From Dehalococcoidales bacterium (GTDB lineage: Bacteria; Chloroflexota; Dehalococcoidia; Dehalococcoidales; RBG-16-60-22): a stretch of 56,023 nt of DNA. Position numbers and translations under genes: made by a program. A model generated the notes under the pieces. It worked only from the letters and a program-made list of their open reading frames with translations, made no database searches and had not been told where the DNA came from. Position 1 is the stretch's first letter. Each line of letters starts with the position of its first letter. This document shows positions 8,914 through 45,982 of the stretch, in pieces. The stretch covers positions 1-56,023 of the forward strand of contig DAOUCO010000069.1 of NCBI GenBank assembly GCA_034432135.1, read 5' to 3'.

Positions 8914-9588
8914 ATGGTCAAGGCATTTGCATCATGGAGCGGCGGCAAGGACGGCTGCCTGGCGCTTTACAGGGCGAAGCAGGCGGGCATGGACATCCGG
9001 TTTCTCATAAATATGGTATCGGAGGACGGGCAACGCTCGTGCAGTCACGGCATCCGCGCGGAGGTTATAAAAAAACAGGCGGAAGCACTGGGGATAGCTA
9101 TCGTGCAAAAACCTACGACCACCGATATCTACGAGAAAATATTCAGCGACACAGTTAAAGAATTGAAAAAGAAGGGCGTGAAAGCCGGCGTCTTCGGGGA
9201 TATAGACTTTCAGCCGCACCGGGAGTGGGACGAAAGGGTCTGCGCTGCCGTCGGCGTTACCGCAAACCTTCCTCTCTGGCAAGAAGACCAGACAAAACTC
9301 ATGGAAGAATTTATCGATGCCGGATTCAAGTCGGTGGTCGTTGCGGTGAAAGCCGACCTGCTGGGAAAAGAGACGTTAGGGAAAACAGTCGACAGGGAGT
9401 TTTTAGGTTATGTCAAAGCATTAAATAAAGATATCACGCCCTGCGGCGAGGCGGGGGAATATCATACACTTGTTACCGACGGGCCTATATTTAAAAAGCA
9501 ATTAGAAATCGTCGAAGCTAAAAAAGTGAGCCGGGGAGAGCACCATTTCTTGGAGATTCTGAAAACGAAGCTGACGACAAAAAAATGA
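8914..9588 (+). CDS. ATP-binding PP-loop protein of the MJ0570/Dph6 (diphthine-ammonia ligase-like) family
   Basis: SWSGGKDG PP-loop, GDID...REW, LPLW and CGEAGEYHTLVTDGPIF motifs. Confidence 0.75.
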   Translation: MVKAFASWSGGKDGCLALYRAKQAGMDIRFLINMVSEDGQRSCSHGIRAEVIKKQAEALGIAIVQKPTTTDIYEKIFSDTVKELKKKGVKAGVFGDIDFQPHREWDERVCAAVGVTANLPLWQEDQTKLMEEFIDAGFKSVVVAVKADLLGKETLGKTVDREFLGYVKALNKDITPCGEAGEYHTLVTDGPIFKKQLEIVEAKKVSRGEHHFLEILKTKLTTKK

Positions 9589-18144: not shown

Positions 18145-18205
18145 AGAAAGCCAACTTAAGCCTATAGATAATCGTCATTAGATATTTGGTTTACTTTCGT
18201 AACGA

Positions 18206-18235
18206 TTGACATCGTATTGCGTAATTACGTAAAAT
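18206..18235 (+). promoter_or_regulatory. Promoter of tubulin-like gene 1 (ATTGACAT-N-GTAAAAT)
   Basis: TTGACA at 18206-18211, an 18-nt spacer, then TAAAAT at 18230-18235. The architecture mirrors 22522-22550. Confidence 0.5.
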
Positions 18236-18264
18236 AAAGCAAAGAACCTTTTCCAAGGTGAGTA

Positions 18265-19440
18265 ATGAAATTAGTTGTGGTTGGTTTCGGGCAGTGCGGC
18301 GGCAGAATAGCTGACGAATTCGCCCGCTTAAATAAAAGAGCACTAGGCTTGCGCGGTTTAAACCTCATCACCGGGGCTTATGCCGTCAATACGGATATAG
18401 CCGACCTCAGCGGGCTGACGACGATTAAGTCCAACTTCGAGCACCGAATACTTATCGGCAACAAAAAGACGCAAGGTCACGGCGTGGGAAAAATCAACGA
18501 GCTTGGCGCGGAAATCGCCCACGAGGATGCCGATAAGGTCATCGAGACAATCAGAAGCACAGAACACTTTGCCGAAACAGATGCATTCCTGCTTTGCGCA
18601 GGGGCGGCGGGGGGCACAGGTTCTGGCGCAATATCCATAATGACGCAGCAGATAAAAGAGCGCTACGTAGATAGACCGGTCTACAACCTTATAGTATTGC
18701 CATTCGAGCATGAGGTCGCTACGGAGGAAAGGACGGTATATAACGTAGCTACCTGCTTAAAGTCCAGCTATCTAGTGGCAGATGCCATATTTCTCGTCGA
18801 TAACCAGAGATACGTGATGAAAGACGCTTCATTGATAAACAATCTTACTCGAATTAACATGATGATTGTGAAACCATTTTTCAATCTTCTTTGTGCCGGC
18901 GAAGAGAAAAGGACACGATACATCGGCGCCAAGATTCTGGATGCCGGGGACATCATCCAGACCTTAGTGGGCTGGACAACTATCGGTTACGGAAGGTCAC
19001 AGACGGGAATATTCAAGTCGTTTCTCGGCGGGCCTCGCGACTTCCGTAAAAAAGCCTCGGAAACCCAGCGTGGCATTCACGCCCTTGATGAAGCTATAAC
19101 CAGCCTATCCGTCAAGTGTAATCCGCTGGACTCAAAACGGGCGCTTTATCTGGTATCCGCTCCCGCCAAGGAAATCAATGTAGACCTGATAAAAGAACTC
19201 GGTACTTACATTAAAAATATGGCGCCAGAAGCCGTCATCAGGAGCGGCGATTATCCGAGAGAAAAAGGCAACCTGGATGTCACCGTAATTCTCTCGGAGA
19301 TGAGCGATGTGGAGAAGGTAAGGAGCTATTTCGCCAAAGCCATCAGACTCATCGCCGAACTGAAGAAACGTCAAGAAGGCTTAGTAAGCACACAGCGAGA
19401 GATTGATGTTTCGATTAAAGACATTCCCTCGCTGTTATAA
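18265..19440 (+). CDS. Tubulin/FtsZ-superfamily GTPase, CetZ/tubulin-flavoured (paralogue 1)
   Basis: T1 GFGQCGGRIA, T3-like GHGVGKINELGAEIA, tubulin signature AAGGTGSGA, base-contact LVDNQRYV, T7-like LDAGDIIQT, and C-terminal KDIPSLL. Confidence 0.8.
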   Translation: MKLVVVGFGQCGGRIADEFARLNKRALGLRGLNLITGAYAVNTDIADLSGLTTIKSNFEHRILIGNKKTQGHGVGKINELGAEIAHEDADKVIETIRSTEHFAETDAFLLCAGAAGGTGSGAISIMTQQIKERYVDRPVYNLIVLPFEHEVATEERTVYNVATCLKSSYLVADAIFLVDNQRYVMKDASLINNLTRINMMIVKPFFNLLCAGEEKRTRYIGAKILDAGDIIQTLVGWTTIGYGRSQTGIFKSFLGGPRDFRKKASETQRGIHALDEAITSLSVKCNPLDSKRALYLVSAPAKEINVDLIKELGTYIKNMAPEAVIRSGDYPREKGNLDVTVILSEMSDVEKVRSYFAKAIRLIAELKKRQEGLVSTQREIDVSIKDIPSLL

Positions 19441-19593: not shown

Positions 19594-20079
19594 CTATCTG
19601 GCTATCTTGGAGTAAATTTGCCAGGCCTGTTCGATAGTCTCGTCGCGAACCTGCCAGGCTCGCTCGATGGTGCTATCACGATTATTGGCGGCTTCGGCAA
19701 TTGCCGCTTCATAAGCACTATCAGCAGACTTTACAGCGCTCTTATATTCTTCTTCAGCCTGCTGTATAGCCGCTTCCCGGGCGCTGGCGGCATTAGCTAA
19801 CGCTTCCTCCCGCTGTTTCATCGCTTTAGCTACAGCAGAGGCATAAGCGCGAGTAGCCTGCTGTTCTGCCCGACGGTAGGCTTTAGCTACCTGCATTTCA
19901 TTCTCGTGATAAGCCTTAGCGACCTGCCGCTCGGCGTCCATATAAGCGGCATAAGCCCTTTCGGCCTGACTCATTACTTCGTCGAGAGGATTGGTAGAGC
20001 GTTCTTCTTCTTCTTCTTTTGGTTCTTCAGCTTGGATGGCTTCTTCAGCCGCGTGACCTTTTTTCTTCTTGGTAGGCAC
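19594..20079 (-). CDS. Hendecad-repeat alpha-helical protein with a Lys/Glu-rich N-terminus
   Basis: 161 aa with RBS AAGGAGGTG. Aromatic residues recur every 11 aa (Y46/57/68/79, Y112/123, W142/153). No TM segment or signal peptide. Confidence 0.7.
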   Translation of the reverse strand: MPTKKKKGHAAEEAIQAEEPKEEEEERSTNPLDEVMSQAERAYAAYMDAERQVAKAYHENEMQVAKAYRRAEQQATRAYASAVAKAMKQREEALANAASAREAAIQQAEEEYKSAVKSADSAYEAAIAEAANNRDSTIERAWQVRDETIEQAWQIYSKIAR

Positions 20080-20253: not shown

Positions 20254-22353
20254 TTAATCTTGATCGTCCTCATCCTTAGATTCTTCCTCATCAGGCTTTA
20301 ATTTTTTAGCTTCATACATTTTAGAGAGCAGTTCCAGGCGCTCCGCCATCTTTTTTCTGGCTTCTCTGGGTGTTTCCCGAAGAGGTTCAACAGGTTTTTC
20401 TTTATGCATTTTGCCGAGTTTGCCTGTTTTATCTAATTTCTTTACCGATTCTTTCAAGGTATCGAGGACCGCCTTGGTATCCTCAATAGTGGCTTCGGTC
20501 TCTTCTTCAGTGTATTCCCTGGTTTCATCAACCGGCTGTTCCTCCGCAACTTCAGGGACAGGCTCCTCTTCTTTTTTCTTGCTCTTTTTAACAGCTTCCT
20601 CACGTGACTTCGAAGCAATTATATCGTCACCGATTTCTTCAGCGGCAGGTACAGGCGAGCCAGTGATTCTCCCGGTCACCCCGGCTGCTATATCCGTAGC
20701 TTCTTTGATAGCTTTTAGAGTTCTTTCCGCTGATTCTCTAGAAGCCCTAACGAGGGCATCAGTCACTTCGCGGGCAGTTTTTACCGCCGCTTCCGACGCC
20801 TCTCTGGTTTCAAGGCTGATTTGCTGCGCCCTGGCAATGGCCAACTGTATTTCTTTTTCTGTGGATTCAGCCAATTTTCTGACAGACGAAATAGTGCTAT
20901 CGATAGTCTCACGGACAGTGTTTAATGCTTCTTCAGAAGCCTCGCGGGCGGAGTTATTTATTTCGTTGGCAGTTGCTATGATTTTTTCAGATTCTGTTTT
21001 TAAAGACTCGATAGCTTCACGCGCCGTCCTGGATGATTCTTCAGCCGATGCCCGGGAGGCATTGACAATTTCTTCAATGCGACTGATTAAGTCCCGGAGC
21101 TCTGCAGTAGTGGCAGCCGCTCTTTCCGAAACTTCTTTGCTTATCTGTTCAGCTCTAAAAATAGCCTCCTTTGATTCCACCACCGATTTTTCGGCCGCGG
21201 CTTCAGCAGCAGCGGCGGCTTTTTTCCCTTCTTCCTGGGCTTGTATGATAGCTTCCTGTATCGTTTTTACCGATTCATCGGCAGCTTTGACAGCATCGCT
21301 GCTGGCCTGTTCCGCCCTGGTAACAGCCTCCTGGAATTTGCGGGCGGCTTCAGCGGCATTTTCTTTAGCTTCTTGGCTGATGGCATCAGCGCGGGCAATA
21401 GCATCCTGGGCGGCTTTAGTAGCGGCTTCCGTAGCCTCATGTGTTTCACGGGCTACTTCTTCAACTCGTTTAATCGTTTCCTGAGCGGCTTTTTGCGCTG
21501 CTTCAACAGCCTGCTTCATTTCACGGCTGATAGCCTCAACACGATTCATAGTTTCCTGGGATGTCCTGTGTGAAGATTCAGCCAACTCACGAGCAACAGT
21601 ACTAATAGTTTCGGCGCGTTTGGCGGCTTCTTCCGATACCCTAGCGGCAATTTCAGCACTTTCCCTGGTTGACTTACTGACTTTTTCAGCTTTTATGCTG
21701 GTCTCTCTGGCGATTTTATTGGTATTATCAGCGGCGTCTTTAGCTTCTTTAGCTAAACGTTCAGCCCGCGTGGTAACTTCTTTAGCAACTTTAATAGATT
21801 CTTCGGCTGCTTCCTTAGCGGATTTTACGGCTAATTCAGCTTTACTGAGTGCATCTTGAGATATCTCTCTGGCAGATTCAGCTGTTTTTTTAGCTTCACG
21901 GCTTATCTCTTCGATACGGCTCAATCCGGTTTGTGACAGCATTAATGCAGACTCGGCGGACTGCATGGCATCCCGGCTGATTTTTTCTGCCCGGGCGATA
22001 GCTTCCTGAAAAGCCTTAGCCATAGCCTCGGTGGTCTGCTGGGGGCGTTTAGCAACTTCTTCGGCTTTTTTAATAGCCTCATCGGCGGCCCTCAAGGTCG
22101 CCACCATAGCTTCCTTGGATTCGCGGCTGATTTTTTCCGCGCGGTCGATAGCATCCTGGGCGGCTTTAGCCGCTGCTTCGGCGGCCGCCGTGGCTTCTTT
22201 ACCGATTTGCTCGGCACGCATAGCCGCCTCGATTGCCGTTTTGGTCGACCTTCCAGCTGCTTCTTTGGCAGCACGGCTTAAAGCTTCAGCCCTGGCTACC
22301 GCTTTTTCAAAATCGGTAATGTTGTTTTCTAATTCCTGTAACTCCGGCGACAT
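20254..22353 (-). CDS. 699-aa Ala/Glu/Lys-rich protein built from ~21 tandem 25-residue helical repeats plus an acidic/basic C-terminal tail
   Basis: Long uninterrupted ORF with repeat consensus RAExISxEAKxAAExAxKxxQEAIx. No TM segment or signal peptide. Confidence 0.8.
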   Translation of the reverse strand: MSPELQELENNITDFEKAVARAEALSRAAKEAAGRSTKTAIEAAMRAEQIGKEATAAAEAAAKAAQDAIDRAEKISRESKEAMVATLRAADEAIKKAEEVAKRPQQTTEAMAKAFQEAIARAEKISRDAMQSAESALMLSQTGLSRIEEISREAKKTAESAREISQDALSKAELAVKSAKEAAEESIKVAKEVTTRAERLAKEAKDAADNTNKIARETSIKAEKVSKSTRESAEIAARVSEEAAKRAETISTVARELAESSHRTSQETMNRVEAISREMKQAVEAAQKAAQETIKRVEEVARETHEATEAATKAAQDAIARADAISQEAKENAAEAARKFQEAVTRAEQASSDAVKAADESVKTIQEAIIQAQEEGKKAAAAAEAAAEKSVVESKEAIFRAEQISKEVSERAAATTAELRDLISRIEEIVNASRASAEESSRTAREAIESLKTESEKIIATANEINNSAREASEEALNTVRETIDSTISSVRKLAESTEKEIQLAIARAQQISLETREASEAAVKTAREVTDALVRASRESAERTLKAIKEATDIAAGVTGRITGSPVPAAEEIGDDIIASKSREEAVKKSKKKEEEPVPEVAEEQPVDETREYTEEETEATIEDTKAVLDTLKESVKKLDKTGKLGKMHKEKPVEPLRETPREARKKMAERLELLSKMYEAKKLKPDEEESKDEDDQD
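20749..22293 (-). repeat. Coding tandem repeat array (75-nt / 25-codon period)
   Basis: Residues 21-370 split into 14 consecutive blocks of exactly 25 aa, each starting R/K-A/V/I-E/D. Residues 371-535 continue with 25-29-aa blocks. Confidence 0.8.
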
Positions 22354-22521
22354 TACCTCGTCCTTTTTTGATAACTATCTGTTATCAGCATAGACTATTA
22401 TATTATCCGCACGCCAGTTTTTCAATAAACATATCTATCTTATAATAAATATCTATCTAATAATGAGTATGAAACGTTATAATAATTAGTACTAACTTAA
22501 AAAATACTTCGATGAGGATAA

Positions 22522-22550
22522 TTGACATTATCATTTTATTGTGTAAAAAT
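22522..22550 (+). promoter_or_regulatory. Promoter of tubulin-like gene 2 (ATTGACAT-N-GTAAAAAT)
   Basis: TTGACA at 22522-22527, a 16-17-nt spacer, then TAAAAA/AAAAAT. It shares the ATTGACAT and GTAAAA context with 18206-18235. Confidence 0.5.
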
Positions 22551-22578
22551 AACATAAATTTATAAAGTGAGGTGAAAT

Positions 22579-23751
22579 ATGAAACTCGTAGTTCTCGGCC
22601 TGGGACAATGCGGCGGCCGAATTGCCGACGAATTCGCCCGGCTTAATGGTAAAGCTAAAGCAAGGCGCGGTATGACCATAGTTACGGGATGTTTTGCGGT
22701 AAATACCGATGCTGCCGATTTAAGCGGTCTATCCAGCATCCCTAAAGACCATCGGCATCGCATACTTATAGGAGCACGCAAGACCGGCGGCCACGGCGTG
22801 GGAAAAATCAACGAACTGGGCGCTGAGATTGCGAAAGAGGATTCCGATAAAATCATCGAAAACCTGCGTAATACCAAGAAATTCTTCGAGACCGATGCTT
22901 TTATGCTTATCGCCGGGACAGCCGGCGGCACCGGTTCCGGAGCAATTTCCGTAGTCACGCAGCACCTGAAGGAACGCTATATCGATAAGCCGATATGGAA
23001 CCTGCTAGTCTTACCTTTCGAGCATGAAGAAACGACGGAAGAGCGGACGGTATTCAATGTAGCCACCTGTCTCAAGTCCTGCTACTCGGTGGCCGACGCC
23101 GTTTTCCTAGTTGATAACCAGAGGTATGTCAGGAAGGATTCCTCTCTCCAGACCAACCTTACCAAGATCAATGCCATGATTGCCGACCCGTTTTATAACC
23201 TGCTCTGCGCCGGCGAAGAGAAAAAGTCCAGATACATCGGCGCCAAGCTGATTGATGCCGGAGATATTATACAGACCGTAGTAGGCTGGACAGTCATTGG
23301 CTACGGCAAGACAACCGCACCGCTGTTCAAACTGCCGGAGTTGAGGAGTGATTTCCGTAAGAAAGGCGCCGAAATCCAGAAGGGCATCCAGGCGATGGAT
23401 GAAGCCATCAGCGAACTATCGTTGAAATGTAATCCCGCCGATTCGCGGCGAGCCTTATATCTGGTATCCGGGCCTGCCAAGGAAATGAACATGGATATGA
23501 TTAAGGAAATCGGCGATTACATGAGAGATATAGCACCGGAAGCTATTATACGGAACGGCGATTATCCTCGGGAAAGAGGCGTGGTGGATGTTACCGTGCT
23601 GCTTTCCGAGCTTAGCGACGTAGAGAAGGTGAGGGACTACTATCTCCGCTCCACCGATCTCATCCCCGAGTTCAAGAAGCGGCAGGAAGAGACCGAAGAT
23701 AAACTAAGGGCTCTGGAGGACGTTTCTAAAGATATTCCTTCGCTGCTATGA
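22579..23751 (+). CDS. Tubulin/FtsZ-superfamily GTPase (paralogue 2)
   Basis: Colinear with 18265-19440 over its full length, roughly two-thirds identical by eye. Motifs GLGQCGGRIA, GTAGGTGSGA, LVDNQRYV, IDAGDIIQT, and C-terminal KDIPSLL. Confidence 0.8.
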   Translation: MKLVVLGLGQCGGRIADEFARLNGKAKARRGMTIVTGCFAVNTDAADLSGLSSIPKDHRHRILIGARKTGGHGVGKINELGAEIAKEDSDKIIENLRNTKKFFETDAFMLIAGTAGGTGSGAISVVTQHLKERYIDKPIWNLLVLPFEHEETTEERTVFNVATCLKSCYSVADAVFLVDNQRYVRKDSSLQTNLTKINAMIADPFYNLLCAGEEKKSRYIGAKLIDAGDIIQTVVGWTVIGYGKTTAPLFKLPELRSDFRKKGAEIQKGIQAMDEAISELSLKCNPADSRRALYLVSGPAKEMNMDMIKEIGDYMRDIAPEAIIRNGDYPRERGVVDVTVLLSELSDVEKVRDYYLRSTDLIPEFKKRQEETEDKLRALEDVSKDIPSLL

Positions 23752-34615: not shown

Positions 34616-36112
34616 ATGTCAGGTGATTGGAAGATGATTAATATTCCTCGAACAATGAGCACGCAGCATCCGGATAATGCTAAAATGCCATCCTTTGTTC
34701 ATGGTAGTGTAATAGGTGGTGAAGACGAAATCGTGGAAGCATATTTAGCATTTTCACAACTTGGATGTCAGGAGCAGATGTGGGATTTTGAGGGGAAAAA
34801 AGCCCTACCATGGGTAGTTTCTGAGCTCCTGACAAAAGACCCTGATTTTTTCAGGAAACATCAGTTGGGCAAAGAAATTTTCCTTACTTTTAGAATTCCT
34901 AATCCTGAGATAGAAAAAGTAGAGGCTAAAATGGTGCCTGAAGTATTAGAGAGTATTCCTCGTTGTTATGATACGGCTCAGTCCATATACGGAAAAAACC
35001 ACCCACCCGTTTTCGAGGTGATCCTACCGATGACCAGCTCTTCAGAACAGTTGAATCGAGTATATTACTACTACCGCGATTTCGTCATCAAGAAAAAAGA
35101 CCTCACACTTTTTCCTGATGATAGTGTTTCGATTAGCCAATGGCTTGGGGATTATAAACCGGAAAAAATCAACGTGATTCCATTATTTGAAGATTTGCCC
35201 TCGATGTTGAATGCCGACCGTATCGTTGCCAGCTACCTGAAAGATAAAAAAGTAGAATATCAACGAGTATTTCTGGCACGTTCAGATCCGGCGTTGAATT
35301 ATGGAGCTCTAGCAGCCGTACTATTACTTAATGTTTCTCTCCAACGCCTATACAAACTTGAAAGGACAATCGGTATTCCTATTTACCCGATTCTGGGAGT
35401 GGGCTCTCCGCCTTTTAGGGGAAACTGTAAGCCCTCCAATGTAAAAAGCATGATCCGGGGCTACCGGAGTTGTCAGACATTTACCATCCAGTCAGCTTTT
35501 AAATATGATTGGCCATCAGATGTTGTTTCTGCTGCAATCACTGAGATTAATTCAACTCCCCGGGGTAATCCTTTACCGGTTAATGAGGAGAAATCAAATT
35601 CTGTTATTAAAAAGACGATATCTGCCTATCAAGAGCAGGTTCCTGAAATAGCATCTTTAGTAAATCAATTGACGTCTTTCCTTCCTCAGCGTCGCCTTCG
35701 GAAGCTTCATATTGGGCTTTTTGGCTATTCTCGAAATGTTGGTAATATCCATTTGCCGAGAGCTATCCCCTTTTGTGCCAGTTTGTATTCAATTGGGCTC
35801 CCTCCGGAATTATTGGGATTATACTCTTTGAACAAAGAAGACCTTGAGATCATCAAGGAAGTCTACCCCAGTCCCTATTTCGAAGAAGATTTCAGGGATG
35901 CTCTAGCCTTTTATAATCCTAAAGCTCTTTCTCTCTTAATCCCAAAAATGAGGAAGCAAATCGAAAAGACGCTGAGAGTTGTAGGATTTCAGACAAATTT
36001 AGAGCACGAAGACATAACATCTCAAATCATCAAATGCCTACAGAATAACCAAACCGACCATCTTCCTGAACTGGTTCTTGAAGCTGCTCAAATCAGGAGA
36101 TTCCTTGGGTAG
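34616..36112 (+). CDS. ppcA: Archaeal-type phosphoenolpyruvate carboxylase
   Basis: The IPRTMSTQHPDNA N-terminus is characteristic of PpcA, and the length is ~490-498 aa. The gene is visibly more AT-rich than its neighbours. The start may be the ATG at 34634. Confidence 0.85.
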   Translation: MSGDWKMINIPRTMSTQHPDNAKMPSFVHGSVIGGEDEIVEAYLAFSQLGCQEQMWDFEGKKALPWVVSELLTKDPDFFRKHQLGKEIFLTFRIPNPEIEKVEAKMVPEVLESIPRCYDTAQSIYGKNHPPVFEVILPMTSSSEQLNRVYYYYRDFVIKKKDLTLFPDDSVSISQWLGDYKPEKINVIPLFEDLPSMLNADRIVASYLKDKKVEYQRVFLARSDPALNYGALAAVLLLNVSLQRLYKLERTIGIPIYPILGVGSPPFRGNCKPSNVKSMIRGYRSCQTFTIQSAFKYDWPSDVVSAAITEINSTPRGNPLPVNEEKSNSVIKKTISAYQEQVPEIASLVNQLTSFLPQRRLRKLHIGLFGYSRNVGNIHLPRAIPFCASLYSIGLPPELLGLYSLNKEDLEIIKEVYPSPYFEEDFRDALAFYNPKALSLLIPKMRKQIEKTLRVVGFQTNLEHEDITSQIIKCLQNNQTDHLPELVLEAAQIRRFLG

Positions 36113-36235
36113 ACTCAGGGAAAACGAAGTACAAAATTGTTAAATTATAGCCATCATGGAAATTCATGCCCTTGGTTGGCAGTTGGTTGACAATATTGCC
36201 TTCGTTACAGTATCATACAAGAAATTGAATATTTA

Positions 36236-36320
36236 CTAGGGGAGCTGAAAGGCTGAGAGTCCTGAAAGGGACAACCCTCATTACCTGATCTCGATAATGC
36301 GAGCGTAGGGAAGTGAGAGA
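36236..36320 (+). promoter_or_regulatory. TPP (THI-box) riboswitch
   Basis: GGGGAGC...GCTGAGA...ACCCTCATTACCTGATCTCGATAATGCGAGCGTAGGGAA matches the THI element core. A TTGACA-N18-TATCAT promoter lies at 36187-36216. Confidence 0.85.
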
Positions 36321-36325
36321 TGTTA

Positions 36326-36365
36326 AACCAGAAGGCTAATTATATTTCAGCTTCTGGTTTTTTAT
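36326..36365 (+). terminator. Riboswitch expression-platform terminator
   Basis: AACCAGAAG...CTTCTGGTT stem followed by a T-run, upstream of thi4. Confidence 0.7.
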
Positions 36366-36470: not shown

Positions 36471-37244
36471 TTGGATGAAATAATCATTTCTAAAGCTATC
36501 GTTGAAGACTATACTAGAGAACTTCTCGATTCCATGGAGGTAGATGTGGCTATAGTCGGTGCCGGTCCTTCAGGCTTAGCCGCCGGTTACTATCTTGCCA
36601 AAAAGGGAATAAAAAACGCCATTTATGAAAGAAAATTAAGTGTTGGGGGAGGAATGTGGGGCGGGGGTATGATGTTTAACCGGATCGTTGTCCAGCCCGA
36701 GGCGAAGGAAATCCTGGATGAGTTCGGTATTGCAGCTAAAGAATATCAGAAAGGTTATTATGTTGCCGACTCGATAGAAGCTGTTTCTGCCCTTTGTTAT
36801 CGGACGGTAAAAGCCGGTACTCGTATTTTTAATCTGATAACGGCCGAAGATGTCATGATTAGAGAGGATGACAAGGTCACCGGTTTGGTATTGAACTGGA
36901 GCGCAGTTTCTTTAGCCAACTTGCATGTTGATCCACTGACTATCCGGTCAAAGCTAGTAATAGATGCTACTGGACACGAAGCCCAAATATGTAACCTAGT
37001 TGCCCGCAAAACAGGTCGAAAATTAGCCACCACCACAGGGGGAGTCATGGGGGAAAAACCGATGTGGGCTGAGATAGCGGAAAAGGAAACCGTCGCCTAT
37101 ACCAGAGAAGTATATCCCGGCCTAATAGGGGCAGGTATGGTGGTCAATGCTGTTTTTGGCCTGCCGCGCATGGGACCTATTTTCGGTGGTATGCTTTTAT
37201 CCGGTAAGAAAGCTGCTGAACTTGCCGCCAATTTGCTGAAATAA
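36471..37244 (+). CDS. thi4: Thiazole synthase Thi4 (archaeal/eukaryotic type, non-Cys active site)
   Basis: FAD/NAD motif [21 protein letters not shown] and DATGHEA. TTG start with AAGGAGG RBS. Confidence 0.85.
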
Positions 37245-40004: not shown

Positions 40005-40631
40005 TCATTTATCTTTATCCGCTTCACCGTTGTAGGCCCGTTTGGGCGTTACCCCTTTAGCTATGGCAGCTGCCAGGACAGCCTTGGTGATGTCGCCAGC
40101 AATAAAGGGAATCACTCCCATTGTCAATAGGCCTGCAAATGTGGCCGGGCTCCCTTTCATAAAATTAAGCCAGAGCCCAAGCCAGATGATACCCGGTACG
40201 TAGATAAGAACGAAGTTGGCGAAGAGCATCAGGCCCAGCATGCTGAAAAAGCTCCTTGCCCGGATGAATCTGTCAGTGAAATAGCCCAGGAAAAGGGCAG
40301 CCAGAATAAACCCAAAGATGTAGCCTCCGGTGGCACCCAGGCCGCTGGCCCAGCCGGAAAACCAGGGGATCCCCGCAAAGCCAAGCATGGCGTAGATAGC
40401 CATGCTGACGCCGCCCCACCATTTCCCCAACAGCACTCCGGCAAGGAGCACGGCGAAGGTCTGCCCAGTCACCGGCACCGGGCTCCACGGTAGCGCAATC
40501 CTAGCCTGCGCCAGGAGACCGGTAAGGCAAGCCATGCCAATAGCCAGCGCCAGCTTTTTAGGTATGCTTAATTCGTACCTCCACCGGAAGATGTTGTACC
40601 TTGTCTGGTCGATTCTCGCAGCTATTTCCAT
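40005..40631 (-). CDS. bioY: Biotin transporter BioY
   Basis: About 5-6 TM segments with the PVPVTGQTFAVLLAG motif typical of BioY. The GAGGTGG RBS favours the ATG at 40631. Confidence 0.85.
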   Translation of the reverse strand: MEIAARIDQTRYNIFRWRYELSIPKKLALAIGMACLTGLLAQARIALPWSPVPVTGQTFAVLLAGVLLGKWWGGVSMAIYAMLGFAGIPWFSGWASGLGATGGYIFGFILAALFLGYFTDRFIRARSFFSMLGLMLFANFVLIYVPGIIWLGLWLNFMKGSPATFAGLLTMGVIPFIAGDITKAVLAAAIAKGVTPKRAYNGEADKDK

Positions 40632-40662
40632 GATTACCACCTCATTTACTTAAATTAATATG

Positions 40663-41163: not shown

Positions 41164-42891
41164 ATGGGTATTTTCATAACGGATACCACTTTGCGGGATG
41201 CACATCAATCGCTGATAGCCACCAGGATGCGTACCAAAGATATGCTCCCCATCGCTGCTGAGCTTGATAAGGCGGGTTTCTTCTCTCTTGAGGTTTGGGG
41301 GGGCGCCACCTTTGATACCTGCATCCGGTTTTTAAACGAAGACCCTTGGGAGCGGCTGCGGAGCCTGCGGGAAAAAGTCAGGAATACCCGCCTGCAGATG
41401 CTTCTCCGCGGCCAGAACCTTGTTGGCTACCGCCACTATGCTGACGATGTGTTACGGGAGTTCATCCGTCTTTCGGTTAAAAACGGTATAGATGTCTTCC
41501 GCATCTTCGACGCCCTGAATGACATCAGGAATATGGAACTGGCGATAAAGGTAGCCAAGGAATTCAAAGCTCATGTCCAGGGAACCATCTGCTATACCAC
41601 CTCGCCGGTGCACACCACGGAAAAATTCGCCGCTATGGCTGAGCAGCTCGAGCGTCTGGGATGTGATTCCATCTGCATCAAGGATATGGCCGGGCTGATA
41701 TCGCCAGCGGCGGCGAGTGAACTGGTGAAAGCCATCAAGGGCCGGATAAGAGTTCCTCTAAACCTGCACTCGCATTGCTCCAGCGGTATGGCTCCCCTGA
41801 GCTACTATGCCGCTGCCCTTGTCGGCGTTGACATTGTGGATACCGCCTTTTCCGCTTTTGGCTGGGGTACTTCCCAGCCGCCTACGGAAAGCATCGTAGC
41901 CGCCTTCAGAGACACCCCCTATGATACCGGCCTGGAACTCGAGTTACTTTATGAAATCGGTGAATACTTCGCCACCTTGAGCGGAAAATACCGGATGCTC
42001 TTTACCGCCGAGACCACCCGCCCCAGCGTCAATGTCCTGCTGCACCAGATACCCGGCGGTATGCTCTCCAACCTTGTAAGTCAACTTCGGGAGCAGAATG
42101 CCCTAGACAAATACAGCCAGGTCCTGGAAGAAGTGCCTAGAGTACGGGCTGACCTAGGTTATCCGCCGCTAGTAACCCCGACGAGCCAGATTGTAGGTAT
42201 CCAGGCAGTGCTGAACGTCATTTCTGGAGGGCGCTACAAGCAGGTTACCCAGGAGGTGAAAAATTATCTCCTGGGTCATTACGGGCGGCCGCCCGGTGAG
42301 GTGAACGAAGATTTGAGGAGACAGGTGATAGGGGAAGAACGCCCTGTCGATGTCCGCCCCGCTGACCTCATCAAGCCGGAACTGGACAGGCTGCGAGAAG
42401 AAGGGCATAAGCTGGGCATCATCCACCGGGAGGAGGACCTGATAACTTACGCCCTTTACCCCCAAGTAGCGGTGAAATTCCTGCGCGGCGAACTTAAAGA
42501 AGAAGCCATGCCTTCGCCTGTGGAAGCGGCCGCAAAAAGTCCGGCGGCAGTCGACTTACCCCTGGAGTTCAGCGTGGACGTTGACGGCGAGGTGTTCAAT
42601 GTCCGGGTATCCTCGGTACTAGGTAAGACCGTAGAAGTGGAAAAGTCAAAGAAACCGAAGGAATTACCCGCTGGCGCCGTTGTTTCCCCGATGCAGGGGA
42701 TGATACTCGCTGTCAAAGTAAAGGCAGGTGATAAGGTTAAAGCCGGCGATGCGCTCATGGTCATCGAGGCGATGAAGATGCAGAACCAAGTTACCGCCCC
42801 GCATAACGGAACTGTAAAAGAAATACTAACTTTCCAGGGAGAGGTGGTCAATGCCGGTGATGTGCTATTGATTGTTGAGCCGAAGGGATAG
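41164..42891 (+). CDS. pycB: Pyruvate carboxylase subunit B / oxaloacetate decarboxylase alpha-type carboxyltransferase with biotinyl domain
   Basis: ITDTTLRDAHQS carboxyltransferase N-terminus and a C-terminal biotinylation motif, EAMKMQ. Confidence 0.85.
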   Translation: MGIFITDTTLRDAHQSLIATRMRTKDMLPIAAELDKAGFFSLEVWGGATFDTCIRFLNEDPWERLRSLREKVRNTRLQMLLRGQNLVGYRHYADDVLREFIRLSVKNGIDVFRIFDALNDIRNMELAIKVAKEFKAHVQGTICYTTSPVHTTEKFAAMAEQLERLGCDSICIKDMAGLISPAAASELVKAIKGRIRVPLNLHSHCSSGMAPLSYYAAALVGVDIVDTAFSAFGWGTSQPPTESIVAAFRDTPYDTGLELELLYEIGEYFATLSGKYRMLFTAETTRPSVNVLLHQIPGGMLSNLVSQLREQNALDKYSQVLEEVPRVRADLGYPPLVTPTSQIVGIQAVLNVISGGRYKQVTQEVKNYLLGHYGRPPGEVNEDLRRQVIGEERPVDVRPADLIKPELDRLREEGHKLGIIHREEDLITYALYPQVAVKFLRGELKEEAMPSPVEAAAKSPAAVDLPLEFSVDVDGEVFNVRVSSVLGKTVEVEKSKKPKELPAGAVVSPMQGMILAVKVKAGDKVKAGDALMVIEAMKMQNQVTAPHNGTVKEILTFQGEVVNAGDVLLIVEPKG

Positions 42892-42919: not shown

Positions 42920-43099
42920 ATGAAGGAAAATGAAAAATCCTACAGGAATCCTACCTTGATTAGGTATCACCCCAGTTGCCGACTATGTAGCTATGCCGGT
43001 TTTTCCAATGTCTGTAATTTCTCTCGAACGGGCAAGTGTGCTTACAACATATCTTCAGAAGATACGGGCGCAAACGAAGAGGTAGAACGGGATGATTAA
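42920..43099 (+). CDS. Candidate 59-aa Cys-rich small protein between pycB and the biotin carboxylase
   Basis: GAGGAG RBS 7 nt upstream of the ATG. CxxC-x8-C-x7-C pattern ([22 protein letters not shown]). Its stop overlaps the start of the next gene (ATGATTAA). Confidence 0.35.
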
Positions 43100-44564
43100 A
43101 AAGATACTAGTGGCCAATCGCAGTGAAATAGCCATACGCATTATGCGGGCCTGCCGCGAGCTCGGGATAACCTCGGTGGCAGTCTATTCTGAAGCGGATA
43201 AAGACGCCCTGTTTGCTAAATACGCTGATGAAGCTTATTTCATCGGTGCGGCGCCGGCAACCGAGAGCTATCTGAATATTAAAAAAATTATTGAAGTAAC
43301 TAAAGAGTGCGGTGCCGAAGCCGTCCACCCCGGCTACGGCTTCCTGGCAGAAAACCCCAGCTTCGCCTACGCCTGTGAAAAGGAGGGTATCAAGTTTATC
43401 GGTCCCTCAAGCAAGGTGCTCGAACTGATGGGCAATAAGATAGAAGCCAGGAAGGAGATGAAAAAGGCCGGGGTCCCGGTGGTGCCCGGCACCGATGAGT
43501 GCGTAACCGACTTCGGCTTGGCCAAAGACATCGCCAGTAATATTGGCTATCCGGTAATCTGCAAACCGTCTGGCGGGGGCGGGGGCATTGGCATGAAGGT
43601 CGTTACTGACGAAGGGGAACTGCGCGAGGCGCTTGACTCCTCCCGGGCGATCGCCGCCTCAACATTCGGATTGCCCGATGTCTACATCGAAAAGTACATA
43701 TCCCATCCCCGACACATAGAGTTCCAGATACTGGCGGACGCGCATGGCAACGCCATCCACCTTGGCGAGCGAGAGTGTTCCATCCAGCGGCGTCACCAGA
43801 AGCTCATCGAGGAGTCTCCATCCCCGGCGCTTACCCCGCAGCTTCGCGCTGAGATGGGAGCCGCGGCCGTCAGGGCTGCCAGGTGGGTCAACTACGAAGG
43901 AGCTGGTACAATAGAGTTTCTTTATTCTGACAGGAAGTTCTACTTCCTGGAAGCAAATACCCGGGTCCAGGTGGAGCACCCGGTGACTGAGATGGTAACC
44001 GGGATTGATATTGTCAAGGAGCAGATAAGAATTGCTGCCGGACTGCCGCTCGGTATCAAGCAGGATGAGGTTCGCCCTCGCGGCTGGGCGATCGAATGCC
44101 GGATCAATGCCGAAGACCCTCTGAACAATTTTGCCCCTTGCCCCGGCAAGCTCCGGGGTTACCGCTCGCCCGGCGGTATCGGCATCCGGGTCGATAGCGG
44201 CGTTTATACACGATACACCATACCATCCATTTACGACCCTATGATATCAAAACTCATCGCCTGGGGCAGAGATAGAGATGAGGCCGTCGCCAGGATGCGG
44301 CGAGCACTCTATGAATACATTATCTCGGGGGTCAAGACCAACATCCCGTTCCATAAAGCGGTCATGGAAAATCCCCGCTTTGTAAAGGGAGAACTCAGCA
44401 CTCATTTTATCGAAAGCGAGACAACCCTCCTAGAAGATATGAAAAGGATTATCGAGAGGGAGAAACCCCTGGAAGAAAGGTTATCCCAGATATTCGACGA
44501 AAAGAAAAAGATAGCCGCTATTGCTGCTGTAACGGCTGTTACCCAGCTTTCCCAAAAATCGTGA
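43092..44564 (+). CDS. accC: Biotin carboxylase (PycA/AccC type), copy 1
   Basis: [20 protein letters not shown]-grasp GGGGIGM and [14 protein letters not shown]. 490 aa with a C-terminal extension. Confidence 0.85.
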
Positions 44565-44602: not shown

Positions 44603-45982
44603 ATGACAGATAGTCCCCCCTTTAAAAAGATATTGATCGCCAACCGTGGTGAGATTGCCGTGCGCATCATCCGGGCCTGCCGTGAGATGGGAATTGACTC
44701 CGTCGCTGTGTACAGTGATATAGACCGCGACGCGCTGCATGTCCGCTGCGCAGACGAAGCCTATCCCATCGGGAGCTCATCTCCCGGAGAAAGCTACCTG
44801 AACATTGAGAAAATCCTGGCCGTAGCCCAGCAGGCCAAAGCGGAAGCGATACACCCCGGCTACGGCTTCCTTTCCGAGAACCCGCGTTTCGCCGAGGCAT
44901 GCCTTGAACGAGGCTTTGTCTTCATCGGGCCTGGGGCAGAGGCGCTCCGTGCCGTGGGCAACAAGGTCTCGGCTCGTCAAACGGCGCAGGCTTGCGGTGT
45001 GCCGGTTGTCCCGGGTTCTATCGCCAGCCTGAACGGCCACGGTGAAGCAGCCGAGATTGCTAAAACAGTGGGCTACCCTGTCTTGTTGAAGGCAGCCGCC
45101 GGCGGCGGGGGTAAAGGGATGCGCATCGCACGTGACGAAAAGGAGCTCAGGCTGGCCATCGAACTGGCCGCCAAAGAAGCAAAGTCTGCCTTTGGCGACC
45201 CCACTCTCTACGTCGAAAAACAGGTAAACTCGGCACGCCACGTCGAAGTCCAGTTGCTTGCCGATAGCTTTGGCAATATCGTTCACCTCGGGGAGCGGGA
45301 CTGCACTATCCAGCGCCGTTTTCAGAAGGTCATCGAGGAATCGCCGTCACCGGCAGTGGATGATGAACTGCGAGGCCTTTTAACCGGTGCGGCGATTAAG
45401 GTAGCGCAGGCCGTCGGTTACCGCAACGCCGGCACCGTGGAATTTCTCGTCGATGGTAGGGATTTCTATTTCATCGAGGTAAACGCCAGGCTACAGGTAG
45501 AACACCCGGTGACGGAAATGGTTACGGGAATTGATATCGTCAAAGAGCAGATACACATTGCCGCCGGAAAGCCACTGAGTCTCCGGCAGAGTAACGTCAC
45601 CATGAGGGGCGCGGCTCTGCAGTGCCGTATCTATGCCGAGAATCCGGCTTATAACTTTATGCCCTCGCCGGGTAAAATACAGACGATACGGGAGCCCGCC
45701 ATTCCTCATATTCGTATAGACAGCGGTGTCATGGATGGCAGTCTTATCCCCATGGAGTATGACGGGCTGCTTGCCAAGCTGGTTGCCTGGGGCAGTACGC
45801 GCACCGAGGCGATTAACAGGATGAAGCAGGCTCTCGATGAATACGTGATTACGGGGGTCCATACCACCGTCCCTTTTAAGAGGTACGTCATGGATACCGA
45901 ACTGTTTCGCTCTGGTGAGTTTGATACGGGCTTTATCAGCCATATACTACAGGACTGGAAGGACTCCCGAAGTAAAGTTTGA
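44603..45982 (+). CDS. accC: Biotin carboxylase, copy 2
   Basis: ILIANRGEIAVRIIRAC, GGGGKGM and [14 protein letters not shown]. 459 aa. Confidence 0.85.
   Translation: MTDSPPFKKILIANRGEIAVRIIRACREMGIDSVAVYSDIDRDALHVRCADEAYPIGSSSPGESYLNIEKILAVAQQAKAEAIHPGYGFLSENPRFAEACLERGFVFIGPGAEALRAVGNKVSARQTAQACGVPVVPGSIASLNGHGEAAEIAKTVGYPVLLKAAAGGGGKGMRIARDEKELRLAIELAAKEAKSAFGDPTLYVEKQVNSARHVEVQLLADSFGNIVHLGERDCTIQRRFQKVIEESPSPAVDDELRGLLTGAAIKVAQAVGYRNAGTVEFLVDGRDFYFIEVNARLQVEHPVTEMVTGIDIVKEQIHIAAGKPLSLRQSNVTMRGAALQCRIYAENPAYNFMPSPGKIQTIREPAIPHIRIDSGVMDGSLIPMEYDGLLAKLVAWGSTRTEAINRMKQALDEYVITGVHTTVPFKRYVMDTELFRSGEFDTGFISHILQDWKDSRSKV

Follow-up and report, generated by a model that had tools for sequence, protein, structure and literature searches.

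CetZ-like paralogues in a conserved four-gene module with two orphan helical proteins in Dehalococcoidales

The DNA analyzed here, which we call the window, is a stretch of 56,023 nucleotides (nt) from a Dehalococcoidales bacterium, positions 1 to 56,023 of contig DAOUCO010000069.1 of assembly GCA_034432135.1, numbered along the forward strand. It carries two paralogous genes of the tubulin/FtsZ superfamily, here named cetZ-like A and cetZ-like B (A and B for short), and between them two genes on the opposite strand, cc161 and cc699. The four genes, with protein lengths in amino acids (aa), are as follows.

18265..19440, + strand: cetZ-like A, 391 aa, a GTPase of the tubulin/FtsZ superfamily that has a CetZ-type C-terminal domain and ends in a long C-terminal helix and the tail KDIPSLL
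19594..20079, - strand: cc161, 161 aa, Ala/Glu-rich and helical, with conserved AY...AY and AW...AW repeats; an orphan family
20254..22353, - strand: cc699, 699 aa, Ala/Glu/Lys-rich, with amphipathic-helix repeats of 25 residues (75 nt)
22579..23751, + strand: cetZ-like B, 390 aa, sharing the motifs of A

A and B are 68% identical over their whole length, and both start with ATG, with a GAGGTG-type ribosome-binding site ahead of each. An earlier sequence-only reading of the window had noticed five motifs in both proteins and had proposed that they combine tubulin-like T1 and base-contact motifs with FtsZ-like T3 and T7 loops, in the manner of archaeal CetZ. We aligned A and B using MAFFT with CetZ, FtsZ and beta-tubulin references that were checked against Protein Data Bank (PDB) entries. 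The CetZ references (Haloferax volcanii CetZ1 and CetZ2, and the CetZ of Methanosaeta thermophila) were sequences from PDB search alignments; the E. coli FtsZ reference is 98-99% identical to PDB 9isk, a Klebsiella (KpFtsZ) entry, and the M. jannaschii FtsZ and human beta-tubulin references are identical to 1w58 and 6i2i_B, respectively. The elements were located as follows.

18283..18312, + strand: T1 loop of A, GFGQCGGRIA, aa 7-16, from the MAFFT alignment
18475..18519, + strand: T3 loop of A, GHGVGKINELGAEIA, aa 71-85, from the MAFFT alignment
18604..18630, + strand: T4 signature of A, AAGGTGSGA, aa 114-122, with G116 and G119 invariant in alignment A1
18793..18816, + strand: base-contact motif of A, LVDNQRYV, aa 177-184
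18934..18963, + strand: T7 loop and start of helix H8 in A, ILDAGDIIQT, aa 224-233
19417..19437, + strand: C-terminal tail of A, KDIPSLL, aa 385-391
22597-22626, 23248-23277 and 23728-23748, + strand: T1, T7 and tail of B

All five motifs were present in both paralogues at the places given by the sequence-only reading, B either matching A or showing the variants which that reading gave, and each fell in a homologous alignment column. The T1 column reads GFGQAGGKVV in CetZ1, GVGQCGNRIL in M. thermophila CetZ, GVGGGGGNAV in FtsZ and QAGQCGNQIG in beta-tubulin. The T3 loop GHGVGKINELGAEIA of A aligned with GHGVGADNELGAEIA of CetZ1 and GLGAGANPEVG of FtsZ, and the base-contact motif LVDNQRYV with VFDNDAW of CetZ1, LVDNQYL of M. 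thermophila CetZ, IPNDKLL of FtsZ and IDNEALY of tubulin. T1 and the base-contact motif are tubulin- and CetZ-like, and T3 and T7 are FtsZ- and CetZ-like. The T7 loop, which the same reading had called intact, has its acidic pair D226/D229 (in A) aligned with D215/E218 of CetZ1 and D209/D212 of E. coli FtsZ; the CetZ1 mutant E218A is reportedly GTPase-defective. Among 76 A and 57 B orthologues, all motifs including D226/D229 were at least 90% conserved, and 193 of the 391 positions reached this level in both paralogues. Fixed differences separated A from B at only eight positions, most of which lie in the C-terminal helix and linker.

Profile searches showed that the two proteins match the Pfam families PF00091 (Tubulin; E = 4e-30 and 8e-32) and PF21011 (CetZ_C; 64.6 and 62.2 bits against a gathering score of 21.6, E = 1e-17 and 5.5e-17), far above chance level, and PF21011 was found in 120 of 120 close homologues among the matches listed. 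Neither FtsZ_C nor Tubulin_C (PF03953) was matched by A or B in Pfam, and the scores for the FtsZ equivalog TIGR00065 of NCBIfam, 56.0 and 56.6 bits, were below its cut-off of 295.2. The best PDB sequence matches (phmmer) were CetZ1 (4b46, 1.3e-42, full length) and CetZ2 (4b45, 5e-29), followed by M. thermophila CetZ and Aquifex FtsZ at about 1e-13 and by other FtsZ proteins and tubulins at 1e-7 or weaker. Computed over 365 well-occupied alignment columns, the identity of A is 33% with CetZ1, 22-23% with FtsZ and 16% with beta-tubulin. Residues around the nucleotide pocket have been described as telling CetZ from FtsZ (Brown and Duggin 2023), and we derived a set of discriminating columns of our own. 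There were 11 columns in which the E. coli and M. jannaschii FtsZ, the only two FtsZ references, agree and differ from the consensus (at least 80%) of 46 CetZ-family representatives; A has the CetZ residue at 10 of them and the FtsZ residue at none. Those 46 representatives lie outside the bacterial clade described below, and six of them are named, including one (P0194) from Chloroflexota.

The predicted structure gave the same result. An AlphaFold model of A, built on a 77-sequence alignment (mean predicted local distance difference test, pLDDT, 92.8; predicted template-modeling score 0.90), has the CetZ fold with the long C-terminal helix and a disordered tail. The T7 residues are modeled where the H7-H8 loop meets helix H8 (H190-213, H227-233), which is the place expected for T7, and the M-loop (aa 245-258) is variable and of low pLDDT. 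Foldseek ranked CetZ1 first (template-modeling score, TM, 0.93; root-mean-square deviation, rmsd, 1.9 Å), CetZ2 second (0.93, 2.3 Å) and M. thermophila CetZ third, with FtsZ structures lower (TM 0.73-0.86, rmsd about 3 Å or more). Taken together, the CetZ_C domain, the PDB matches, the fold and the discriminating columns, all CetZ-type, support the assignment of A and B to CetZ-like members of the tubulin/FtsZ superfamily. The view of the sequence-only reading that they are CetZ-like rather than FtsZ was borne out, both by alignment, in which ordinary FtsZ is neither the best match nor highly identical, and by superposition of the predicted fold.

The two genes between A and B encode proteins that are both rich in Ala, Glu and Lys and have a helical hydrophobic periodicity of 3.55-3.65 residues; no hydrophobic or transmembrane segment was found in either. 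In cc161 the conserved core comprises aa 31-75 and 140-158. In cc699 the N-terminal ~200 aa and a C-terminal ERLELLSKMYEAKKL motif are conserved, and the length of its orthologues ranges from 517 to 911 aa across species, a pattern suggesting that the repeat array has grown and shrunk, as it would in a spacer or ruler protein. Searches of Pfam, NCBIfam and the PDB gave no relative of cc161 or cc699 above threshold; matches to Sds3, DUF948, MG_279/280 and coronavirus spike heptad repeats were sub-threshold and composition-driven, and we rejected them. A profile search of the database with cc161 returned only 32 hypothetical proteins, probably because Ala/Glu-rich words swamp the candidate list; the sole organism-named one is from Dehalococcoidia.

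The gene arrangement is widespread. A tblastn search with window proteins recovered the order gap, A, cc161, cc699, B, dnaX in most sufficiently long loci, and the syntenic block with eno, gap and dnaX was found in about 70 Dehalococcoidales genomes or species. Among the 55 loci with both paralogues, 50 had the arrangement A(+)-cc161(-)-cc699(-)-B(+), and the other five differed by lacking cc161 only, so that cc699 was present in 55 of 55. These data show that the four genes constitute a conserved module across Dehalococcoidales. The large partner is shorter (517-653 aa) in the loci without cc161 (L033, L043, L044, L045 and L046).

The KDIPSLL end is near-invariant in A and B orthologues. It resembles the FtsZ C-terminal peptide (LDIPAFL in E. 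coli), with which MAFFT aligns it. Outside the bacterial clade, many representatives of the CetZ family have the ends DIDSLL, IEPLF, TETLF, DIESLL or DIPPLL, and the tail of CetZ1, LESLF, is needed for function (bioRxiv 10.1101/2024.04.08.588506). Because of these kindred tails, we regard KDIPSLL as a family trait, and we dropped it as proof of FtsA binding.

The closest homologues of the two proteins, 98% down to 81% identical, came from Dehalococcoidales and Chloroflexi metagenome-assembled genomes. Most are named 'cell division protein FtsZ', others 'tubulin/FtsZ family protein' or, by JGI, 'tubulin-like protein CetZ'. Among 80 retrieved loci, 78 were titled Dehalococcoidales, Dehalococcoidia, Chloroflexi/Chloroflexota or 'uncultured bacterium'; the other two carry differing bin labels and were taken to be misbinned. 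More than 6,000 database proteins matched at E <= 1e-5, a count that spans all taxa with no taxon filter, and 977 relatives at E <= 0.001 emerged from an exhaustive search of 1.84 billion 50%-identity representatives.

A neighbor-joining tree (100 bootstraps) was built from 69 full-length representatives and the references; most of the 50%-identity representatives are unnamed, and the domain of many tips was inferred from context or composition. Dehalococcoidales A and B fell in a 33-member bacterial clade with 95% bootstrap, within which an A+B subclade had 89%; because of this support, we place the A/B duplication inside this lineage. The bacterial clade stands beside a poorly resolved archaeal assemblage containing CetZ1, CetZ2 and sequences labeled Thermococci (P0189), Nitrososphaerales, Bathyarchaeia and Euryarchaeota, with deep nodes below 10% support. 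In the published delimitation of the CetZ clade, Thermococcales CetZ is the deepest branch (PMC9856176). 'CetZ-like' is the safe term for A and B because they belong to a bacterial clade of their own whose placement relative to the archaeal CetZ boundary lacks node support. The Chloroflexota-labeled CetZ-like P0194 grouped, outside the main bacterial clade, with P0202 from Bathyarchaeia, which ends in SKDIPPLL; this grouping is a hint that transfer between domains took place more than once.

Other members of the bacterial clade are found in different surroundings. In more distant Dehalococcoidia they are single-copy and lie beside genes for Ig-like surface proteins and a terminase-like gene, or beside a nuo operon. 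On contig L081 (4561-7071 and 7567-8778), P0140 lies beside a bacterial 16S rRNA gene with two FtsH genes downstream, and this 16S gene is split by an insertion, about 900 nt long, that codes for a LAGLIDADG-type protein; split 16S genes of that kind are typical of candidate-phyla-radiation bacteria. On the phage-like contig L087 (3459-5491), which has genes for a nucleoside deoxyribosyltransferase, an RNA-ligase/Acb1-like protein and a radical SAM protein, P0162 directly follows a ParB-like partition gene, and on contig L085 (8978-10351) P0276 adjoins a terminase-large-subunit-like gene. Two single-protein scans for viral relatives found none, and the link to mobile elements therefore comes from contigs L085 and L087. 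Some relatives in the clade may act in positioning mobile-element DNA and may have been vehicles of transfer.

The host of A and B is a bacterium, since the window also encodes NAD-dependent DNA ligase (LigA), peptidyl-tRNA hydrolase (Pth), RecR, RecO and DnaX. Upstream of the module are genes for enolase, a metallo-beta-lactamase-fold protein, an HGD-D-family protein and glyceraldehyde-3-phosphate dehydrogenase (gap), and downstream is dnaX; the GC content is not deviant. The family description demands an archaeal host, and in this respect A and B depart from it. The sequence-only reading had called their presence in a bacterial housekeeping context unusual: the context is as it said, given LigA, RecR, RecO, DnaX and the synteny, with the qualification that the 'unusual' occurrence had already been published (see below).

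The biology of this order bears on what A and B might do. Dehalococcoidales and SAR202 have lost dcw and peptidoglycan genes and kept an adjacent mraZ-mraW-ftsZ-ftsA, and the wall of Dehalococcoides mccartyi is S-layer-like and similar to the archaeal one (PMC10608941). In D. mccartyi 195, ftsZ (DET0343) lies beside ftsA, and there are two further 'FtsZ' genes, DET0589 and DET0636 (PMC5102406). In D. mccartyi BTF08, the 'FtsZ' btf_0595, the 'FtsZ/tubulin GTPase' btf_0551 and the nearby hypothetical protein btf_0548 were plentiful in the disc-shaped cells of pure cultures and reduced or not quantified in the barrel-shaped cells of co-cultures, a down-regulation that its authors read as a division effect (PMC8163811). 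DET0589/DET0636 and btf_0551/btf_0595 may be orthologues of A and B, and the BTF08 data are circumstantial evidence for the role in cell shape proposed below.

Elsewhere in the window (34616-36112, 36228-36328, 36471-37244 and 8914-9588) we noted genes for a phosphoenolpyruvate (PEP) carboxylase (PF14010, E = 1e-182), a thiazole synthase of the Thi4 family with a thiamine pyrophosphate (TPP) riboswitch ahead of it, and a diphthamide-synthase-like PF01902 protein. We take these genes to be of archaeal type, and they fit a lineage with much archaeal-like gene content. Two biotin-carboxylase paralogues are adjacent at 43092-44564 and 44603-45982, after a pyruvate/oxaloacetate carboxyltransferase-type subunit at 41164-42891, with a BioY transporter gene nearby (40005-40640).

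Next to the module genes we found a promoter-like site for each of the four, those of A and B being conserved. The sites described here are listed below.

18206..18235, + strand: candidate sigma-70-type promoter of A, TTGACA-18-TAAAAT, 11/12 consensus, with the spacer dyad CGTAATTACG; its function is putative
22354..22578: divergent promoter region between cc699 and cetZ-like B, with promoter-like sites both ways
22425-22397, - strand: promoter-like site on the cc699 side, 11/12 consensus
22522-22550, + strand: promoter-like site of B, 10/12 consensus with TG

The TTGACA, a TTGCGGAATTGCG-type spacer and the TAAAAT are kept upstream of most of 30 A orthologues (L001-L030), so that conservation at A extends well past the two hexamers. 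Many relatives also have a GTAC-N4-GTAC palindrome just upstream of the -35 element of A, where the window has TTAC-N4-GTAA (18170-18240). The dyad and the palindrome look like binding sites of a regulator, a putative assignment made from their sequence. At B, TTGACA and a TG-TAAAAATAGCAT dyad are kept in most of the 25 loci inspected. The B site has a 17-nt spacer and an extended -10 element inside a near-palindrome (22522-22560, TGTGTAAAAATAACATA in the window and TATGCTAAAAATAGCATA in relatives), which may be an operator overlapping the -10 element. The divergent region also holds an 18-nt tandem direct repeat at 22431-22466 (ATATCTATCTTATAATAA / ATATCTATCTAATAATGA). Its core 8-mer ATCTATCT occurred in 0 of 60 related loci; the repeat is therefore lineage-specific, and we discarded the idea that it is a conserved site of regulation.

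With moderate confidence, we read A and B as CetZ-like filament formers that make up one cytoskeletal module with cc161 and cc699 and have a role in cell shape or the envelope. Polymerization, interaction of the four proteins and this role would go as follows. Each CetZ-like protein would bind GTP through its intact T1-T6 elements, and subunits would join head-to-tail, the acidic T7 residues D226/D229 of each completing the GTPase site on the subunit that follows. By analogy with Haloferax CetZ1, the product would be dynamic filaments or sheets near the membrane, either homopolymers or mixed A/B polymers. The KDIPSLL tail, and perhaps the M-loop, would make partner or lateral contacts. From their gene order, cc161 and cc699 may be filament-associated bundlers, rulers or tethers, so that the helical repeat proteins and the tail would bundle, scaffold or tether the filaments beneath the membrane. 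Host biology suggests that the module may organize cell shape or the assembly of the S-layer and envelope in cells free of peptidoglycan, working alongside the FtsZ-FtsA divisome that these cells have kept. CetZ1 polymerizes in a GTP-dependent manner and brings about a disc-to-rod change in an archaeon with an S-layer only; its T7 loop, M-loop and C-terminal tail are needed, and mutations in the T7 and T4 loops perturb function (bioRxiv 10.1101/2024.04.08.588506).

Several points weigh against this interpretation. No recognizable membrane anchor or transmembrane segment was found in any of the four proteins. It is gene order that ties cc161 and cc699 to filaments, since neither has homologues of known function, and the orthology of A and B with the D. 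mccartyi proteins of the proteomic and transcript studies is itself inferred. Distant members are single-copy and have no partner genes, so the family in general can do without the module. A possible part in division next to FtsZ, considered below, also counts against it.

A more far-reaching version, which we offer tentatively as possible, is that the Dehalococcoidales, having lost peptidoglycan and taken on an S-layer envelope of archaeal style, also run an archaeal-style CetZ shape system with two co-evolving paralogues (possibly a heteropolymer) and two dedicated helical partners, acquired by inter-domain transfer, possibly via mobile elements. If this were true, CetZ-type morphogenesis would be tied to the type of envelope and not to the domain of life.

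The alternative that survives best, though we consider it rather unlikely, is that A and B are accessory or alternative division proteins that co-assemble with FtsZ at mid-cell or replace it, like the FtsZ1/FtsZ2 pairs of archaea and chloroplasts, with KDIPSLL recruiting FtsA or SepF. The tail is like the FtsZ peptide LDIPAFL, wall-less cells may need extra constriction machinery, the database annotation is 'cell division protein FtsZ', and the D. mccartyi authors read the down-regulation as an effect on division (PMC8163811). However, sequence, fold and discriminating residues are CetZ-type, and similar tails in CetZ-family members outside the bacterial clade mean that FtsA binding need not follow. 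A and B are also unlinked to ftsA and ftsZ; their flanking genes are gap and dnaX, both in the window and in most sufficiently long loci. As described in the literature, archaeal CetZ1 acts in developing a rod shape and in motility, and it is reportedly dispensable for division.

We also considered that A and B form an obligate heterodimer or heteropolymer in the style of alpha/beta-tubulin or BtubA/B, making tubules or bundles that the helical repeat proteins stabilize. This idea overlaps with the shape module proposed above and, as an explanation of its own, seems improbable to us. Both paralogues occur in 55 of 55 loci long enough to judge, and have done so since a duplication within the lineage; at about 68% identity they are still similar, and the few fixed differences are mostly in the C-terminal helix and linker, all of which would suit paired subunits. 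Yet the GTP-binding and T7 motifs are complete in both, without the asymmetry of alpha- and beta-tubulin, the genes are separate transcription units split by opposite-strand genes, single-copy relatives exist in the family, and the proteins are 16% identical to tubulin and have no Tubulin_C match.

It is very improbable that A and B are DNA-segregation or positioning motors like TubZ or PhuZ, left over from a mobile element. The ParB-like gene before P0162 on its phage-like contig and the terminase-like gene beside P0276 would fit such an origin, but A and B stand among chromosomal housekeeping genes (eno, gap, dnaX) whose synteny extends over about 70 species, the GC content is not deviant, and the module has neither a centromere-binding or ParB-like gene nor an integrase or phage gene. 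That A and B are ordinary bacterial FtsZ with over-read motifs, as the public annotation of most orthologues would have it, is refuted by 22-23% identity to FtsZ against 33% to CetZ1, TIGR00065 scores of 56 against 295, the missing FtsZ_C, a T1 loop with GQCGG and not GGGGG, and a canonical ftsZ elsewhere in Dehalococcoidales, and we give it practically no credence.

The occurrence of such proteins in bacteria is not new in principle. Santana-Molina et al. (2023) reported in one sentence that a CetZ C-terminal hidden Markov model matches sequences of Chloroflexota-Dehalococcoidia, which they called 'sparse paraphyletic groups' (PMC9871819), and A and B belong to this group. That paper gives no account of genomic context, paired paralogues, the four-gene module, the tail or promoters, and full-text literature searches found no paper describing the module. 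An order-wide module with two orphan partners, the KDIPSLL tail, conserved promoters and a bacterial clade with mobile-element-like contexts appear to be undescribed, and they give a specific, testable hypothesis on cell shape in wall-less bacteria. CetZ papers of 2024-2026 still call the family archaea-specific; an abundant and strongly conserved bacterial CetZ-like branch would widen this picture. A peptidoglycan-free, S-layered order provides a natural setting in which to ask whether filaments of the CetZ type serve generally to shape such cells, and the module offers candidates for filament partners, few of which are known even for archaeal CetZ. Since Dehalococcoides, which matters for bioremediation, is in culture, its disc shape and the shape change in co-culture could be examined directly. 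Furthermore, thousands of database entries titled 'cell division protein FtsZ' are misnamed.

Compared with known systems, A and B are closest to archaeal CetZ (H. volcanii CetZ1, 4B46, and CetZ2, 4B45; M. thermophila, 3ZID), with which they share the pair of Tubulin and CetZ_C domains, the motif mosaic, a T7 acidic residue at the E218 position, the long C-terminal helix and a short hydrophobic tail, as well as the presence of several paralogues per genome and a host with an S-layer envelope without peptidoglycan. Unlike archaeal CetZ, they have a bacterial host, form a separate clade (95%) with other bacterial and mobile-element-like sequences, are about 33% identical to CetZ1, carry a 3-residue insertion after the T5 loop and end in KDIPSLL. 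Their neighbors also differ: according to reviews, archaeal CetZ genes lie with pilin, sugar-epimerase or cofactor genes, whereas A and B lie with genes for orphan helical repeat proteins. With canonical FtsZ (E. coli, M. jannaschii) they have in common the fold, the flavor of T3 and T7, GGTGSG and a DIPxFL-like C-terminal peptide, but they differ from it in the T1 and base-contact motifs, in having no FtsZ_C, in lacking linkage to ftsA or the dcw cluster, and in coexisting with a real FtsZ. BtubA/BtubB of Prosthecobacter, and alpha/beta-tubulin, offer a parallel in that a pair of tubulin-superfamily proteins occurs in a bacterium together with a non-enzymatic partner and may have an inter-domain origin. 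BtubA/B, however, are true tubulins with Tubulin_C and are co-transcribed, whereas A and B are CetZ-type and separately transcribed.

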